A DNA stretch of 64,000 nt from positions 1-64,000 of IMG/VR virus record IMGVR_UViG_3300010429_001696. The stretch is one strand, 5' to 3'. The stretch comes from a virus (Duplodnaviria > Caudoviricetes). This document shows, piece by piece, positions 11,953-17,880 of the stretch; the stretch's first letter is position 1; the number at the start of each line of letters is the position of its first letter. The position numbers were made by a program, and so were the translations under genes. The notes under the pieces are model-generated. The model was not told the origin of the DNA, did not search any database, and worked only from the letters and a program-made list of their open reading frames with translations.

Positions 11953-12861
11953 CTAAAAATTTTTTAAAATGTTGCTAAATATATTTGAAATTTTTACATA
12001 ATATATTTCATTATATGAAGAATATTTATCATAATAAAAAATTTCTTTTATAGTTTTACTTGATATATCATCCAATTCTTTATATGATTTCTCTATATAC
12101 TCTTTATATTTTAATTTGAAAAATTTATTCCATTTATTATAATACTCAATCAAATCTTTTTTATCATGACATTCTTCACCATTAAAATATTGATTAAATA
12201 GTTTAGTAAAATTTAATAAATCGCTTATATCAGAAAATTGATCAATAAATTCGTTTGGGTCAAAATCTTTCAAAGATTCAAAAAATTTATATAAATATGA
12301 AGACTCAAATAATTTATACAATTCATCTTTACTACAATCACAATTTCTAAACTGAGCATATAACATTGTATATCTTGCTATTAACTCGTGTTCCAATGTC
12401 AAATAAACCAAATATAAAAATTTATCATATCTATTGTCAATATCTTTTTTTATTATAGAAACATATAAAGACTTCACAAAATCCAACATATCACTATCAT
12501 TCTCAATTGTGTAAATATCGTATATGTGTCTAATTTCGTGGGCGACAACAGATATCAGTTTATTCTTATCTATTTTTTTATCATATATTTCAATTGGTAT
12601 AATTATGTTTTCTCTGTTTCTATATAATAAATCATAGATGTTTACATTCGAATAATATACACTTTTTTCATCATCTTCGATAAAATTAATATGAACATTA
12701 GCAATATTATCTAGCAGCCCATATTTTCTCAAATCTAAATAAACGACACAAGATGAATCTACATTTTTCAAATCTTCCTCGATATAACTGATTATATTTT
12801 TAATATCCTCGGGAATATAAGATTTGAACTCGTTTAAAAAATTTTGATAATTATAAATCAT
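11953..12861 (-). CDS. Putative zincin metalloprotease-like protein
   Basis: VAHEIRH (HExxH) plus downstream EHELIAR; leader YQNFLNE. Confidence 0.55.
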   Translation of the reverse strand: MIYNYQNFLNEFKSYIPEDIKNIISYIEEDLKNVDSSCVVYLDLRKYGLLDNIANVHINFIEDDEKSVYYSNVNIYDLLYRNRENIIIPIEIYDKKIDKNKLISVVAHEIRHIYDIYTIENDSDMLDFVKSLYVSIIKKDIDNRYDKFLYLVYLTLEHELIARYTMLYAQFRNCDCSKDELYKLFESSYLYKFFESLKDFDPNEFIDQFSDISDLLNFTKLFNQYFNGEECHDKKDLIEYYNKWNKFFKLKYKEYIEKSYKELDDISSKTIKEIFYYDKYSSYNEIYYVKISNIFSNILKNF

Positions 12862-12901
12862 ATAAATATATATTCAATGAAATATCGTATGTTTTTGAAA
12901 G

Positions 12902-12973
12902 TTGAGATGAAAAGATTCGAACTTTTATCGGGTGATCCAAGAGTCACTAATGATGCCATTGCACCACATCTCA
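12902..12973 (-). tRNA. Atypical tRNA with 8-nt anticodon loop (CUCUUGGA; Lys-CUU or Gln-like)
   Basis: TGAGATG/CATCTCA acceptor, AAAAG-TTCGAAT-CTTTT T arm, GTGA/TCAC anticodon stem. Confidence 0.7.
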
Positions 12974-12976
12974 GAG

Positions 12977-13048
12977 TGGCGAGAGGGAATTTCGAAATCC
13001 CGGCCTAGCGAATATGAGTCGCTTGTTCTGCCTCTGAACTACCTCGCC
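12977..13048 (-). tRNA. tRNA-Met/Ile2 (CAT)
   Basis: GGCGAGG...AGCGA-CTCATAT-TCGCT...TCTCGCCA. Confidence 0.9.
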
Positions 13049-13160
13049 ATAATATTTTACAGAATACTTTTTTTGGACATATTTAAAAGACATGTTTTGG
13101 TTTTTTGTTGCTGTAAGTATTCTTTAGTTGTTTTGCTCATTAGATACCAGATTTTATTAG

Positions 13161-13233
13161 TTGCCCTGTCAGAGTATGATTCTGAATCTCAACATTCAAA
13201 GTGTTGCGTGATAGCCAATTTCACTACAAGGCA
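13161..13233 (-). tRNA. tRNA-Gln (TTG), non-canonical T loop ATCATAC
   Basis: TGCCTTG/CAGGGCA acceptor, CAACA-CTTTGAA-TGTTG. Confidence 0.85.
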
Positions 13234-13240
13234 GTATATC

Positions 13241-13492
13241 TTATATATTATATTTTTCGTATGTCTTCACCCATTTTTTAATCGCATTTCCACTAACGCC
13301 ATATTTTCTCCCAACACCACATAAACCAAATTCATCAATCTCATTTTTTAATTGCTCAAATGATGGTCTATCTACCTTTCTTCTAGATACAAAAGAATTC
13401 TTTATGTTGTTTTCTTTCTGTTTCAGTATAGACTTAAAATCATCTGGGATATACTTCTTAAATTCATTTAAAAAATCAAGATAATATTTCAT
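13241..13492 (-). CDS. Small protein: leader plus HTH like the C-terminus of phage HNH endonucleases
   Basis: MKYYLDFLNEFKKYIPDD; RRKVDRPS...GVGRKYGVSGNAIKKW. Confidence 0.65.
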   Translation of the reverse strand: MKYYLDFLNEFKKYIPDDFKSILKQKENNIKNSFVSRRKVDRPSFEQLKNEIDEFGLCGVGRKYGVSGNAIKKWVKTYEKYNI

Positions 13493-13559
13493 AAGGTTTT
13501 TAATTATATATTAAAAAATAATGATTTGGTTTAAATTTCAACATTTCAAAGAACTTTTG

Positions 13560-13645
13560 AGTCGACGGTCAGACTCGAACTGACATGCCTTTCGGTTTTT
13601 ACAATTTTGCAGATTGCTGGCTATTTCCAATTCACCCACGTCGAC
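13560..13645 (-). tRNA. tRNA-Cys (GCA) with enlarged variable region
   Basis: GTCGACG/CGTCGAC-T, GCAAT-CTGCAAA-ATTGT, variable AAAAACCGAAAGGCAT. Confidence 0.85.
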
Positions 13646-14526
13646 AAATTATTTAAATATTTTTGTTCATATTTTTTAATATCTTCTAAAAACCACACCT
13701 CAAAATCTAATCCTAATTTTTTTGCTGATTCCCATTTATTATAATCATCTTCTTTTATCCTGCCCTTTATCTCTAAATTTTTAATGCTATCATTGTTATT
13801 TATGATTCGAAAATCTATGATATAAGTGTGTTCATTTTTATCGATTCCAATATATTTTATTCTAACCTTACCATATTCCCAATCTTTGATCAAATTGATT
13901 TCTTTCATTTTATCTAAAATATAACAAGCTCTTAATTCATATGTTCCTTGAACTCTGATATCTTTATATTCTAACCATTTTGTTGTTCCACCAGCAACAT
14001 AATTCTTTCCAGTGTCGTAAGATTTTTTATTTACTTTGCTCCAATTTATATTAGAATTATGAACAGTTAACCATCCTCCTCTTTTTTTAGATGCACAACT
14101 AATACTGCAATATTTTTGATTTCTCTTAGCCCATTTTATTTCAAATTCTTTTTCACAATATTCACACTTTAATAATACTGTGTGACTATGGCATCCTTTA
14201 TCAGTCAAAGTTTTAGAAATTTTGTTTTTTGTTTCATCACTATGATTTCTGGAATTGGCGCATTTTCTTGAGCAGAATTTATTATATTTCCCTTTATCAA
14301 AATCGTTTTCAGTGATTCTAATATAGAAAATATTATTACATTTAGAACATTTTTGTTTTAATTCTATTCTTTTTGATTTTTCAACACCTTTAAATTTTTC
14401 TGAATTTTTTCTAATTCTCTCTTCTTTTTTGGGGTTTGAATCACAATTTGAAACATGTAAAGCATATAAACATTGTTTATCAACTTCTATTAATTTGTTA
14501 CACCATTTACAAATTTTACTATACAT
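13621..14526 (-). CDS. Zn-finger plus PD-(D/E)xK (TnsA-like) free-standing homing endonuclease
   Basis: Likely start MYSKICKWC at 14526; CxxC/FCSRKCANSR/YCSISCA motifs; QGTYELR..YIIDFRII..LEIKGR; 3' end overlaps tRNA-Cys. Confidence 0.75.
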   Translation of the reverse strand: MYSKICKWCNKLIEVDKQCLYALHVSNCDSNPKKEERIRKNSEKFKGVEKSKRIELKQKCSKCNNIFYIRITENDFDKGKYNKFCSRKCANSRNHSDETKNKISKTLTDKGCHSHTVLLKCEYCEKEFEIKWAKRNQKYCSISCASKKRGGWLTVHNSNINWSKVNKKSYDTGKNYVAGGTTKWLEYKDIRVQGTYELRACYILDKMKEINLIKDWEYGKVRIKYIGIDKNEHTYIIDFRIINNNDSIKNLEIKGRIKEDDYNKWESAKKLGLDFEVWFLEDIKKYEQKYLNNLSTWVNWK

Positions 14527-14605
14527 AATTATATATATAAAAATTTGCCGGTTCATAATAGAATCGAACTTAATATTTCCAATAATTTCAAAGAACTTAT
14601 CTAAG

Positions 14606-14908
14606 CGGTGCCGACCGGGCTCGAACCGGCGACTTCCTGCGTGCATTTTTTAAAACCTTTTTGTTTCCAAAAAGTTAGGACTATATCATCATCTCAGAGA
14701 GATGTTGGATGCTAATTTGGTATTATATTATATTGCTATAACCCCCAATAGTCTCTGCACCTTCCGTCTCTGACGGCTTGGCTCAGGATTACCATCTTTT
14801 TAAAAAAGTTAGGCTTCCCTGAATTCATCCAATTTTTCAATCATTATCGCTAATGAAAGCTGCCACTTCTGACAGGCAGGCATTCTAAACCAACTGAACT
14901 ACAGCACC
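14606..14908 (-). tRNA. tRNA-Asp (GTC) interrupted by group I intron
   Basis: 5' exon GGTGCTGTAGTTCAGTTGGTTTAGAATGCCTGCCTGT (14908-14872) plus 3' exon CACGCAGGAAGTCGCCGGTTCGAGCCCGGTCGGCACCG (14643-14606). Confidence 0.92.
14644..14871 (-). ncRNA. Group I intron (IC-like, ORF-less, 228 nt) at anticodon position 35/36
   Basis: Follows U, ends in G; core motifs AATTCAGGGAAGCC, GGTAATCCTGAGCCAAG, GTGCAGAGACTA, GATATAGTCC. Confidence 0.9.
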
Positions 14909-14978
14909 ATATTTTTTCAAAGCCAATAAATTAGCAAAGAAAATTAATTTTTTATCAATATTTCAATGAACTATTATG

Positions 14979-15063
14979 CGTCCCAGGAAGGATTCGAACC
15001 TACGTTGGATTTTCATCGTCGGGTTAACAGCCCGGACCGTTCGACCACTACGGCAACTGAGAC
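14979..15063 (-). tRNA. tRNA-Asn (GTT) with long variable arm
   Basis: GTCTCAG/CTGGGAC-G, CGGG-CTGTTAA-CCCG, variable arm GAT-GAAA-ATC. Confidence 0.85.
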
Positions 15064-15068
15064 TTTTG

Positions 15069-15155
15069 CGGTCCCTACGGGATTCGAACCCGTCTGAGAT
15101 ATTTCTATCAACCGATGTGACAGACCGGCAGCCACGCCTAGCAGCCCCAGAGACC
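15069..15155 (-). tRNA. tRNA-Asp (GTC) with long variable arm
   Basis: GGTCTCT/AGGGACC-G, CCGGT-CTGTCAC-ATCGG, variable arm GATA-GAAA-TATC. Confidence 0.85.
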
Positions 15156-15159
15156 AGAG

Positions 15160-15233
15160 TAGTCAAGGGCGGACTCGAACCGCCAGCCACGACTTTATCA
15201 GAGTCGCAATCTAACCAATTGATATACTTGACT
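15160..15233 (-). tRNA. tRNA-Ile (GAT)
   Basis: AGTCAAG/CTTGACT-A, CGACT-CTGATAA-AGTCG. Confidence 0.92.
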
Positions 15234-15263
15234 ATGCAATAATTTCAAAGAACTTAAAATTTG

Positions 15264-15333
15264 TGCCGCCGGAAGGATCTCGAACCTTCGCGCCGAGGTT
15301 TTACAGACCTGTCGCCTACCCTGGGTCGTCGGC
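15264..15333 (-). tRNA. Atypical tRNA-Tyr (GTA): short variable loop, weak D arm, 8-nt T loop
   Basis: GCCGACG/CGGCGGC-A, AGGT-CTGTAAA-ACCT, GAAGG-TTCGAGAT-CCTTC. Confidence 0.7.
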
Positions 15334-15350
15334 AATTCTAAAAAGATAAA

Positions 15351-15529
15351 AAAATTGTCTGCTCATTCCAAGTATGAAATAAAGTTTCTGGACATATCCT
15401 ATTAGGGACTTCACCAGAATGCAAGTCTACCTGACCTTTATCTTACTAAGCGAATTGACGTTTTCTTGGAAAAACTATGACAATCTTTCTGAAGGATTAT
15501 CATCGATTCACTTTTCACCAGACAATTTT
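15351..15529 (-). ncRNA. Unidentified multi-branched structured RNA (~180 nt)
   Basis: 11-bp closing stem AAAATTGTCTG/CAGACAATTTT; internal stems TGATAATC/GATTGTCA, GTTTT/AAAAC, TTCTGG/CCAGAA, AGATAAAG/CTTTATTT; no ORF; inside tRNA operon. Confidence 0.65.
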
Positions 15530-15532
15530 ATA

Positions 15533-15628
15533 AAAAATGTGTGTTCCAACATGAAACCGTAGGACTTTTTCCGTCTGATTACCGGAACCTGTGGGACACT
15601 GGGAATCGAACCCTCACCACACATTTTT
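15533..15628 (-). ncRNA. Unidentified structured RNA (~95 nt) with T-loop hairpin
   Basis: Closing stem AAAAATGTGTG/CACACATTTTT, GGG-TTCGATT-CCC, TTCCG/CGGAA. Confidence 0.6.
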
Positions 15629-15898
15629 AATCTCATTTTTTCAAAGAACTATTTTTTTATTATATTTTTTATATTTTTAACTTTTAACTTCAACCATCTT
15701 TTATTTCTAACAACCGTTCTATCTTTATCATTCAACTCCACTTTTTCGCCATCCCATATGCCAGTTAAATATATTTTTATGGATTTTCTACCATTTGAAT
15801 AATCATATTTAGAATCAACATATTCAACAAGATCCCCTTCCTCTATTTCATTATAATTTTTTTTATCATTGCTCCTTTCTTATTATATTTTTTAAAAC

Positions 15899-15932
15899 AA
15901 AAAAACCCAATCTTTTATTTCAGATTGGGTTT
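15899..15932 (-). terminator. Attenuator terminator of tRNA operon 1
   Basis: AAACCCAATCT-GAAATAAA-AGATTGGGTTT followed by TTTTGTTTT. Confidence 0.85.
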
Positions 15933-15960
15933 ATAAAAACTAAGCTATATGCAAAATGAT

Positions 15961-16023
15961 TCACCCAATCAGAATTTTCATTTGATCGTCATAAATATTC
16001 ATATAATTACACATAGTTTTCAT
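15961..16023 (-). CDS. Leader peptide 1, MKTMCNYMNIYDDQMKILIG
   Basis: 20-codon ORF whose end (GATTGGGTGA) is complementary to the terminator 5' arm; codons match downstream tRNAs. Confidence 0.8.
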   Translation of the reverse strand: MKTMCNYMNIYDDQMKILIG

Positions 16024-16030
16024 AATTGCT

Positions 16031-16120
16031 CGTTTATTATATATTGTATTAAAAAAGTCGTTTTTTTCCGTTTTTGTTTTAATTATACGACAAAATTACT
16101 AAAAAGTTTCAAAATAAAAA
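16031..16120 (-). promoter_or_regulatory. Promoter module 1 (TAATTTTG element plus AATATATA element)
   Basis: ~90 bp near-duplicate of 17789-17880; TAnnTTTG at 16091-16098. Confidence 0.7.
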
Positions 16121-16139
16121 ATATTTTTTAATTTTTTTT

Positions 16140-16418
16140 TTAAAAAACTCCGTTATCTTCGCCATATGTTGCATTCCAATAGATTATATCTTTTATATCT
16201 ATAATTACATCATCTAAAGTTTTTACTCTATAAGGCCTAGCTCTTTTTAATTCATCTGGTGTGAAAATTCTATGATTATACATTTTCATTGCTTTTTCAG
16301 CCTTATCATTTGTCTCCTCACAAAAATTTTCAGCTTCTTTTATGTCTGTAAAAATATGATAAAAGATTGTATCATCTGGTGTTATAACTACATAAATTTC
16401 ACTCGTTTCATATCTCAT
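16140..16418 (-). CDS. Hypothetical protein
   Basis: Open ORF in a minus-strand gene run. Confidence 0.6.
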   Translation of the reverse strand: MRYETSEIYVVITPDDTIFYHIFTDIKEAENFCEETNDKAEKAMKMYNHRIFTPDELKRARPYRVKTLDDVIIDIKDIIYWNATYGEDNGVF

Positions 16419-16511
16419 CGTTTTTTTTTATTTTTTTTATCTAGGGCTTTTGTGGTCTTTCTACGAAATCTTCACCGAAAGGATCATCCGTATTAAATGC
16501 TTCAAATTTTT

Positions 16512-17117
16512 TCATGTTAATTTATCATTTTCCTTATCAGATATTCTATTAACAAAATATGTATTGTCTTGTGGAAGTTTTTTTGAAACATTAAAAGAAT
16601 GAATTTCATTTTTATATTTCAATCTCAGATAATTCTCTCTGTTTTTATCAATCTGGATGCATTGAAATATCGTTATCACCATGGCCAACATAGATATAAT
16701 AAATCCATTAATAGAGCCCTGATCATTTATTCCTCTAAAGAAACATATAATATAAAATATGAATATGGCTGCTGTTAATATGATTGCTCCGGTTGTGAAA
16801 ATTCCAATTTCTTCATTTTTCTTATCCAAAAAAATATTAAATATAAAATTTATTCCTTTATCATAAAACTTTTTTATTTTATTTAAAATGTTGAATCTTT
16901 CTCCAATCTGTTCTATTTTATCAATATCTATTATATTATTGCTAAAATATTCTAATATCATTTTCTGATATTTTGGACTCAAACTACTAAAAACATTAAC
17001 TATCTTATTTCTTATACCATCATCATTTATATACTTGTTTATTAATTTCAAATCGAAATCGATGGTATTGTTCTCGGCTAAGAATTCATCATAATTTTTC
17101 ATTTTCCTATCTTTCAT
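16512..17117 (-). CDS. Hypothetical membrane protein with T4 CTS-like leader
   Basis: MKNYDEFLAE; two hydrophobic segments. Confidence 0.65.
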   Translation of the reverse strand: MKDRKMKNYDEFLAENNTIDFDLKLINKYINDDGIRNKIVNVFSSLSPKYQKMILEYFSNNIIDIDKIEQIGERFNILNKIKKFYDKGINFIFNIFLDKKNEEIGIFTTGAIILTAAIFIFYIICFFRGINDQGSINGFIISMLAMVITIFQCIQIDKNRENYLRLKYKNEIHSFNVSKKLPQDNTYFVNRISDKENDKLT

Positions 17118-17175
17118 TTTATTAATATTTCTTTTTATTTTATATATTAATAAAAAAAAACAGAAAAAATAATAA

Positions 17176-17376
17176 TTACCATCTTATAATTTTGAAGTTT
17201 GCTCCTTTACTTTTTACTATTTTACCTTCTTTTTCGAGTTCAGCAATAATGATATCAACCAGAACTTTATTCAATTCTGATATATCCCAGTAGTAAAAAG
17301 TATCTCCTCGCTTCGCTGATTTTAAAATCTCACGACGAAGAAATTTTAATATTTCTTGTTTTTGTTCTGGTAACAT
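17176..17376 (-). CDS. Hypothetical protein
   Basis: Start MLPEQK at 17376; the longer ORF call overlaps a tRNA. Confidence 0.6.
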   Translation of the reverse strand: MLPEQKQEILKFLRREILKSAKRGDTFYYWDISELNKVLVDIIIAELEKEGKIVKSKGANFKIIRW

Positions 17377-17396
17377 TTTTTTTTGTAAGTTTTTTG

Positions 17397-17476
17397 TTGT
17401 GGTGGAGGGATTTGAACCCTCATACACCAGATTACGCTTTTAATGCATGTTTATAAGACATGTGCGATACACCACA
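17397..17476 (-). tRNA. tRNA-Ile (TAT)-like, lacking a normal D arm
   Basis: TGTGGTG/CACCACA-A, 7-nt connector, CATGT-CTTATAA-ACATG, 24-nt extra region, GAGGG-TTCAAAT-CCCTC. Confidence 0.75.
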
Positions 17477-17482
17477 ATATTG

Positions 17483-17558
17483 TACTCCCGATGGGACTCG
17501 AACCCACAACTTCCGCCTTGAAAGGGCGGCGACTTTAAACCAGTTCGTCTACAGGAGC
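17483..17558 (-). tRNA. tRNA-Glu (TTC)
   Basis: GCTCCTG/CGGGAGT-A, CCGCC-CTTTCAA-GGCGG. Confidence 0.92.
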
Positions 17559-17566
17559 TTATGATT

Positions 17567-17640
17567 TGGTAGCCTGTTTGGAAATCGAATCCAAATTGTC
17601 GATGTGAGAAACCGATCTCCTGCCATTAGAGGAACAGGCC
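17567..17640 (-). tRNA. tRNA-Glu (CTC) with encoded CCA
   Basis: GGCCTGT/ACAGGCT-ACCA, TCGGT-TTCTCAC-ATCGA. Confidence 0.88.
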
Positions 17641-17676
17641 ATATATTTTTTTTTCAAAGAACAATCAAAACATAAC

Positions 17677-17703
17677 AAAAAACCCAATCTTTTTTGATTG
17701 GGT
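17677..17703 (-). terminator. Attenuator terminator of tRNA operon 2
   Basis: ACCCAATC-AAAAAA-GATTGGGT followed by TTTTTGTT. Confidence 0.85.
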
Positions 17704-17738
17704 CTCTTATATAAAAAAGCATATAAAAATATTCCCAA

Positions 17739-17789
17739 TCAAGTTGGCGAGTTTTCTATCTCTTCATATATGTTAAAATTTTTCATCAT
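17739..17789 (-). CDS. Leader peptide 2, MMKNFNIYEEIENSPT
   Basis: Contains ATA TAT GAA GAG ATA GAA; stop lies within TTGATTGGG, complementary to the terminator 5' arm. Confidence 0.8.
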   Translation of the reverse strand: MMKNFNIYEEIENSPT

Positions 17790-17880
17790 TTATTATATAT
17801 TGTATTTAAAAAGTCGTTTTTTTCCGTTTTTCGTTTCAATTATAGCACAAAATTACTAAAAAGTTTTAAATAAAAAAAAT
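17789..17880 (-). promoter_or_regulatory. Promoter module 2 (duplicate of module 1)
   Basis: TAnnTTTG at 17848-17855, then AAAACGGAAAAAAACGACTTTTT..AATACAATATATAATAAA. Confidence 0.7.

Follow-up and report, generated by a model that had tools for sequence, protein, structure and literature searches.

Two adjacent paralogous elements at the head of a phage tRNA block: probable tRNA derivatives with a shared terminal module

RNA-A and RNA-B are two adjacent, non-coding, structured elements that lie inside a tRNA transcription unit of a phage. The DNA analyzed, referred to here as the window, spans the first 64 kb of an IMG/VR record of 193,754 bp with ~28% G+C and an estimated completeness of 92%. 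The minus strand of the window carries tRNA block 1, and both elements are found there, in the same orientation as the tRNAs, downstream of a boxA-like motif and upstream of the first tRNA: RNA-A, of 96 nt, extends over 15533-15628, and RNA-B, of 179 nt, over 15351-15529. Comparison of the two sequences indicates that they arose by duplication, and their terminal module looks selected. The best explanation is that RNA-A and RNA-B are tandem paralogues, lineage-specific stable RNAs that derive from tRNAs and are cut from the tRNA precursor, possibly to serve as tRNA mimics; we give this reading, taken as a whole, a probability of about 0.35. The part of it that concerns origin is firmer, in that the two elements are probably derived from tRNAs. 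We class them as orphans among the small RNAs of phage tRNA clusters and the tRNA-like RNAs. Supporting this explanation are position and strand, the lack of coding potential, G+C content, the stability of RNA-B, the closing stems, the paralogy, a third element (RNA-C), the cloverleaf-like form of RNA-A and the precedents of T4 and YrlA. Against it are the lack of any homologue in the searches, the absence of the elements from three relatives whose tRNA blocks share the regulatory layout, the stabilities of RNA-A and RNA-C, which do not exceed those of shuffled sequences, and a T stem in RNA-A of only 3 bp.

The layout of block 1, read 5′ to 3′ on the minus strand, is as follows: promoter, 20-codon leader ORF, intrinsic terminator, small protein gene, boxA-like motif, RNA-A, RNA-B, tRNAs. 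The intrinsic terminator, that of an attenuator, is at 15932-15903. The small protein gene (15649-15869, minus strand, ~70 aa by translation) lies between this terminator and the boxA, upstream of RNA-A. Its homologues, at 43-49% identity, are in other phage contigs (L107-L110), and its product matches no Pfam or PHROG family. The conserved body of the gene is not in the frame of its ATG at 15869; to join the two frames, the run of eight A residues at 15864-15857 would have to be the site of a −1 shift or of transcriptional slippage, or would have to contain a ninth A. The boxA-like motif, GTTCTTTGAAA (15639-15649, minus strand, a sequence reading), is 10 nt upstream of RNA-A and shares bases with the small gene's stop codon; such a motif is also present ahead of an odd element in tRNA block 3. 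Co-induction of RNA-A and RNA-B with the tRNAs, as proposed in the first-pass annotation, is plausible from their position. A sigma-70-like promoter match at 15687-15659 could also drive the two elements separately.

The first tRNA after RNA-A and RNA-B is a tRNA-Tyr(GUA)-like gene with a reduced D arm (15263-15333, minus strand). It scores 27.2 bits with the Rfam tRNA model, for which the cut-off is 29, and ARAGORN recovers it only at the 85% threshold or in D-replacement-loop mode. Downstream are tRNAs Ile, Asp and Asn, an intron-containing tRNA, tRNAs Cys, Gln and Met, and one odd tRNA. The segment at 14664-14860 of the window is intron-like: blastn ties it to annotated phage group I introns, and Rfam misses it. 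A second group I intron candidate lies at L115:154-291 (minus strand; record 108353-108490), with an Rfam Intron_gpI score of 40.7 bits (E 3.6e-8) that is below the gathering score.

Each element is bounded by a closing stem of 11 bp, all 11 of which are Watson–Crick pairs. In RNA-A the 5′ arm (15618-15628) pairs with the 3′ arm at 15533-15543, and in RNA-B the 5′ arm (15519-15529) pairs with the 3′ arm at 15351-15361, all on the minus strand. The 5′ arm of RNA-B is unlike that of RNA-A at two positions, and its 3′ arm holds the two compensating changes. That is, 2 of the 11 pairs differ between the stems, one from G-C to C-G and the other from A-U to U-A. An A run is found ahead of each stem and a U run behind it. 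Inside the stems, GGUGA comes immediately after the 5′ arm in both elements, and a shared 3′ motif, UUUCAU-N1-2-UUGGAA, ends 0-4 nt ahead of the 3′ arm. In RNA-A the 3′ motif is UUUCAU-G-UUGGAA (15544-15556, minus strand), and in RNA-B it is UUUCAU-AC-UUGGAA (15366-15379, minus strand). The first-pass annotation had described two adjacent RNAs with ~11-bp closing stems and common terminal motifs, and this description holds.

Lone inverted repeats of this kind are not rare. When perfect 11-mers were counted whose arms had at least 3 G/C and were separated by 50-200 nt, the genome had 13 k-mer matches, at ~10 places, versus 9 ± 5 in Markov simulations. Two abutting repeats with near-identical ends are a different matter and are not due to chance. 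By base composition, the 5-mer and the 12-mer would be expected in the same structural positions ~1e-9 times, an arithmetic estimate. The global alignment of RNA-A with RNA-B scores 64, versus 44 ± 5 for shuffled sequences, 1 of 200 of which matched it. The local alignment was matched by 3 of 500 shuffles, and the alignment z overall is 3.4-3.7. The ends of the two elements are ~88% identical, whereas the interiors are unalignable; this pattern, together with the compensated stems, is read as selection on the terminal module.

No ORF longer than 47 aa is present in the RNA-A/RNA-B stretch. The G+C contents of RNA-A and RNA-B are 45% and 35%, respectively, versus 23% for non-coding DNA. Elsewhere in the record, stretches with at least 38% G+C that lie outside ORFs of at least 70 aa are found at 74261-74552, 86929-87560, 130008-130145, 148198-148495, 160665-160759, 174528-174630 and 193573-193673; with E values up to 0.1 allowed, Rfam matches none of these seven.

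The partition function gives the pairs of the closing stems probabilities of 0.9-1.0 (from 0.88 in RNA-A), with 0.54 for the outermost A-U pair. The minimum-energy fold of RNA-A is a cloverleaf-like four-way junction, comprising the closing stem, a T-loop hairpin, a middle hairpin, a 4-nt "variable" linker and a third hairpin with GG in its loop. The T-loop hairpin, GGG-UUCGAUU-CCC, is at 15601-15613 (minus strand) and had already been noticed in the first reading of the DNA, as had the branching of the larger RNA. Its T-loop consensus is intact at 13 of 13 positions; the stem has 3 bp, and the hairpin sits in the D-arm position. The middle hairpin (15569-15587, minus strand) has a 5-bp stem and a 9-nt loop that includes UCAGA. 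RNA-B is predicted to be multi-branched, folding as a five-way junction. Its domain 1, which is Y-shaped (15448-15513, minus strand), is the part that resembles RNA-C. In this domain, a C-A mismatch encloses the UUCAGAA loop of a 7-bp hairpin, a short hairpin follows after three bases, and the loop of the 7-bp hairpin reads like the anticodon loop of tRNA-Leu(CAG). Thus, UCAGA is found in the middle loops of both RNA-A and RNA-B. A complementarity of 6-7 nt between these UCAGA loops and the CUG-AUU end of the leader is too short to be meaningful. RNA-B is more stable than shuffled sequences (z −3.7; 0 of 200 as stable), and the stability of RNA-A is like that of shuffled sequences (z −0.7 to −0.8).

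The first-pass annotation had also proposed that GUGARR pairs with UUUCAU, leaving UUGGAA in a bulge, and that this shared helix points to a common protein partner. The fold model disfavors the helix: forcing it costs +5.6 kcal/mol in RNA-A and +6.6 kcal/mol in RNA-B, and its pair probability is ≤0.001. The sole support for it is that two A-to-G differences between the copies stay pairable with U. The model favors instead a local 3′ hairpin, formed in RNA-B through UUUC(A)/(U)GGAA and present in RNA-A as a nearby alternative. This hairpin adjoins the 3′ strand of the closing stem, much as a T arm adjoins an acceptor stem. What survives of the proposed partner is that the shared ends suggest a terminal module, which might be a site for a partner or a processing signal; the bulged helix on which the proposal was built is not supported by the fold model.

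The third tRNA block of the phage (151.5-152.8 kb; L036) repeats the promoter, leader, terminator and boxA of block 1. Between its boxA and tRNA-Leu(GAG) is RNA-C, a non-tRNA element of ~70 nt (L036 1978-2047, minus strand; record 152777-152846). RNA-C has in common with RNA-B domain 1 the segments GGUGAAA..UGAAUC, UCAGAAA and UAGUAA, a similarity matched by 4 of 500 shuffles (alignment z 2.9). The neighboring tRNA-Leu genes have acceptor ends like the termini of RNA-C, which has a CUCAGAA stretch and no T arm. The RNA-C fold is no better than those of shuffles (z −1.25). Judged by sequence and position, RNA-C is a probable third, degenerate copy of the family. The RNA-C motifs and the tRNA-Leu-like acceptor ends together give a hint that RNA-A, RNA-B and RNA-C may descend from a class II tRNA, perhaps tRNA-Leu(CAG). 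Block 2 of the same phage has no such element. A kinship of the three elements with the three attenuator leaders, seen by eye, is not significant, and the similarity of the elements to the phage's own tRNAs is marginal and carried by the T-loop.

Apart from 16 nt at 129.2 kb (L047 3214-3229) that reproduce the RNA-A 5′ end exactly (flank and stem arm) and are unlikely to do so by chance, the genome has no further copy of RNA-A or RNA-B. The 16-nt copy sits sixty bases downstream of an intergenic element (L047:3040-3155; record 129039-129154) and just upstream of a phage-promoter-like box. That intergenic element has a closing stem of ~20 bp, a z of ~−5.3 on either strand and no Rfam match.

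The expectation that RNA-A and RNA-B belong to no known family was borne out. Rfam release 15, run on the 326-nt stretch 15335-15660, gave nothing at gathering thresholds and only noise at E up to 10. The RF00005 tRNA model, with its gathering score of 29 bits, finds nothing in that stretch even when E values up to 10 are allowed, and ARAGORN in standard mode calls neither element at its default, 95% or 85% thresholds. A canonical tRNA was rejected on structural grounds as well: a tRNA has a 7-nt anticodon loop with U33 on a 5-bp stem, and here the loops in the middle are 9 nt long; the T-loop of RNA-A adjoins the 5′ arm of its closing stem, which is not where a T arm would be. A box C/D kink-turn, defined by a C box (RUGAUGA) and a D box (CUGA) beside the terminal stem, was also rejected, as the snoRNA models gave E values of 0.44-9, far below gathering, and GA dinucleotides are not on both strands as needed. 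Readings as a sarcin-ricin motif, RNase P RNA (with which AAGUCC and GGUGAAA are shared), a T-box and a retron were dropped: the strands or partners that define these are missing, and Rfam gives no support.

Homologues were sought among relatives that had been reached through the single-stranded DNA-binding protein, SSB (45-65% identity), a 302-aa gene and the small gene. In 437 kb of these related-phage loci, blastn and nhmmer with RNA-A, RNA-B, RNA-C and RNA-D found nothing. The closest relative, known from a 59%-identical homologue of the 302-aa protein in Logan assemblies only, is outside the set compared. A blastn search in distant mode of 12800-17800 against 50,697 GenBank phage records yielded listed matches that are confined to tRNAs and the group I intron. 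When IMG/VR, JGI metagenomes and GTDB genomes were scanned for sequence patterns, that of RNA-A had 0 matches and that of RNA-B/C had 59 viral and 2 genome matches, all due to chance (coding or tRNA). The pattern for the 3′ terminal module had 1 match, also by chance, and a boxA plus T-loop pattern found only unrelated tRNAs with inserts. Since no homologue was found, covariation is limited to the two paralogue pairs. A 201-aa neighbor protein is an orphan too.

In unrelated phage contigs (L002:1800-2480, also L003-L006), several tRNA-like genes are interrupted around the anticodon by inserts of ~45-60 nt, most of which contain or end in CAGCAATG.

The regulatory layout of the tRNA block is shared by three relatives (L034, L040, L109), none of which carries RNA-A/RNA-B elements; thus, the elements are dispensable for the promoter-leader-terminator-boxA-tRNA layout. 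In the distant relatives, the arrangement of promoter, codon-rich leader, terminator and tRNAs is at L109:985-1215 and L034:2280-2440, and L109 has a small ORF between terminator and tRNAs, as in the window. CheckV rates the relatives' records (35-153 kb; G001-G006, behind L007-L016) as only 5-21% complete, implying genomes near 700 kb, an estimate that fits poorly with the 92% completeness rating of the 194-kb record.

By context, the nearest analogue is the pair of small RNAs that T4 makes from its tRNA region, the role of which is unknown (PMC3014915, PMC9697503). Like T4 RNAC and RNAD (the species 1 and 2 RNAs), RNA-A and RNA-B are two small non-tRNA elements in a phage tRNA cluster, on the tRNA strand; those of T4 are transcribed with the cluster. 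The differences are several: RNA-A and RNA-B head their cluster, are paralogues of each other, lie behind a leader-peptide attenuator and a boxA, and are known from sequence alone. In the GenBank comparison there is also no sequence similarity with RNAC/RNAD, and none of the matches listed from the 50,697 phage records covers 15345-15634.

The likeness to tRNAs, whether those of RF00005 or D-armless mitochondrial ones, includes the four-way junction and the T-loop, closing stems that resemble acceptor stems, a GGUGA located where class II tRNAs have positions 9-13 and, in RNA-B, the anticodon-loop-like UUCAGAA. The elements differ from tRNAs in being below all detection thresholds, in having the T-loop in the D-arm position, 9-nt middle loops and 11-bp stems, and, for RNA-B, in a length of 179 nt.

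A mechanism can be proposed for the tRNA-derived stable RNAs. The 11-bp closing stem and the abutting 3′ hairpin would act as an acceptor/T-arm stack. Recognizing it, the tRNA-processing enzymes—RNase P on the 5′ side and 3′ trimming on the other—would release each RNA from the polycistronic precursor. The terminal module (stem, GGUGA, UUUCAU..UUGGAA) would then be a platform for processing or for protein binding. The most speculative step is that the released RNAs are tRNA mimics that do not decode, e.g., a decoy for a host or phage tRNA-binding factor, with the mimicry provided by the T-loop elbow in RNA-A and by the anticodon-loop-like UCAGA loop in both RNAs. Against a decoy, UCAGA was spotted post hoc, and in the minimum-energy fold of RNA-C it is not in a loop. 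A bolder version, which we regard as improbable, is that the terminal module marks a new class of phage "passenger" RNA that rides on tRNA processing. RNA-A would be a mimic with T-loop and GG-loop swapped, RNA-B and RNA-C would show a loop like that of tRNA-Leu(CAG), and the RNAs would be decoys that shield the tRNA supply of the phage from host tRNA-targeting defense or would exert feedback on the codon-sensing attenuator.

Decaying remnants and cis-acting modules are serious rivals to the stable-RNA explanation. According to the former, RNA-A and RNA-B are pseudo-tRNAs or spacer debris, left over from duplicated tRNA genes, functionless and removed as spacer during tRNA maturation. We consider this somewhat unlikely, and it draws on much of the evidence above. 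Neither the related phages nor the databases searched have a homologue, RNA-A and RNA-C are thermodynamically ordinary, and neither the Rfam tRNA model nor standard ARAGORN recognizes RNA-A or RNA-B. RNA-C is like a tRNA-Leu from which the T arm, the variable arm and the anticodon stem have been lost, and odd tRNAs, homing endonucleases and introns are numerous in the tRNA blocks of this lineage. Decay, however, fits poorly with two perfect closing stems in which both differences are compensated, or with ends that stay alike while the interiors diverge beyond alignment, the outcome expected if the ends are under selection. A T-loop consensus that is whole at its 13 positions and the stability (z −3.7) and G+C enrichment of RNA-B also argue against it.

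The second serious rival, cis-acting operon modules, is unlikely in our estimate. Such modules would be entry sites of the RNase III or RNase P type, would insulate or stabilize the precursor, or would confer boxA-linked resistance to termination. The placement of RNA-A and RNA-B directly behind boxA in block 1, and of RNA-C likewise in block 3, is consistent with this, as are the A run before and the U run after each stem and the conservation of the terminal stem module rather than of the interior. Yet neither block 2 nor the relatives' tRNA blocks depend on such an element, and a cis-acting role needs no intact T-loop. As for particular activities, a consensus scan calls neither stem a terminator, and 11 bp is a short stem for RNase III.

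It is highly improbable that RNA-B, and perhaps RNA-A, holds an aberrant functional tRNA. The candidate is 15509-15450, which ARAGORN in mitochondrial mode calls, at its default threshold, as a D-armless tRNA-Leu(CAG), and which would read the single CUG of the leader peptide. CUG is the leader's one Leu codon, CAG is missing among the phage's four Leu tRNAs, and the D arm of the neighboring tRNA-Tyr is reduced as well. In mitochondrial mode, however, ARAGORN makes 45 other calls outside the genome's 15 tRNA genes, so that ~0.035 false matches are expected in such a stretch, and the anticodon match was spotted post hoc. Structurally, the candidate lies within a larger fold that leaves no acceptor end free. 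Its T arm has a tetraloop without the T-loop consensus, the long variable arm of tRNA-Leu is missing, and the paralogue RNA-C has no anticodon stem.

A resemblance to Y RNA/YrlA had been suggested in the first-pass annotation, which noted that no canonical Ro-binding sequence was apparent and suggested Ro60 and RtcB genes as something to look for in the rest of the genome. Bacterial YrlA RNAs are tRNA-like and are substrates of tRNA enzymes (Chen et al. 2014, PMC4201824). Their arms are ordered stem, T-like hairpin, middle hairpin, D-like arm, stem, with T and D stem-loops that hardly vary on either side of an acceptor-like hairpin; a GNCGAA(N0-1)G motif near the 5′ end is the putative Ro60 contact, and YrlA genes lie within ~4 kb of Ro60 on the same strand (PMC4201824). 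The part of the suggestion with some support is architectural. In both cases the ends form a long stem around a tRNA-like domain, and the minimum-energy fold of RNA-A has the YrlA arm order, with a perfect T-loop on a 3-bp stem, a middle hairpin and a GG-loop hairpin. RNA-B has none of these stem-loops. GNCGAA(N)G is indeed missing from both RNAs, neither of which has CGAA; both have UCGAU instead. A search of the entire 193,754-bp record (estimated completeness, 92%) for the TROVE domain (PF05731) of Ro60, to which the controls responded, found none with E up to 1, and an RtcB gene is also absent from the record. With no Infernal match at E up to 10 and a T stem in RNA-A of 3 bp, the elements are most doubtful as YrlA-like partners of Ro60 (Rsr). 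The protein would have to be the host's, and a TROVE gene in Bacteroides thetaiotaomicron, used as a search control, indicates that hosts of the suggested type can have Ro60.

Least credible of all is an origin as miniature inverted-repeat mobile DNA elements that landed in the operon, which the 11-bp terminal inverted repeats and variable interiors recall, as just two copies have the repeat, the repeats differ yet stay self-complementary, no target-site duplication surrounds RNA-A, and the genome has no more copies beyond the 16-nt trace at 129.2 kb.

The non-tRNA small RNAs of the T4 tRNA cluster have been known for decades, and to our knowledge none has been assigned a function. A second, unrelated example would be useful material for asking what the RNAs of phage tRNA clusters do. 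The build of RNA-A, RNA-B and RNA-C is modular: a conserved, processing-like end module is combined with variable, tRNA-like interiors, in up to three copies. If they are debris, they would be a record of the speed at which tRNA genes in these operons are copied and broken down. Should they prove to be tRNA mimics, they would be relevant to the struggle between the tRNAs of phages and the host defenses that target tRNAs.
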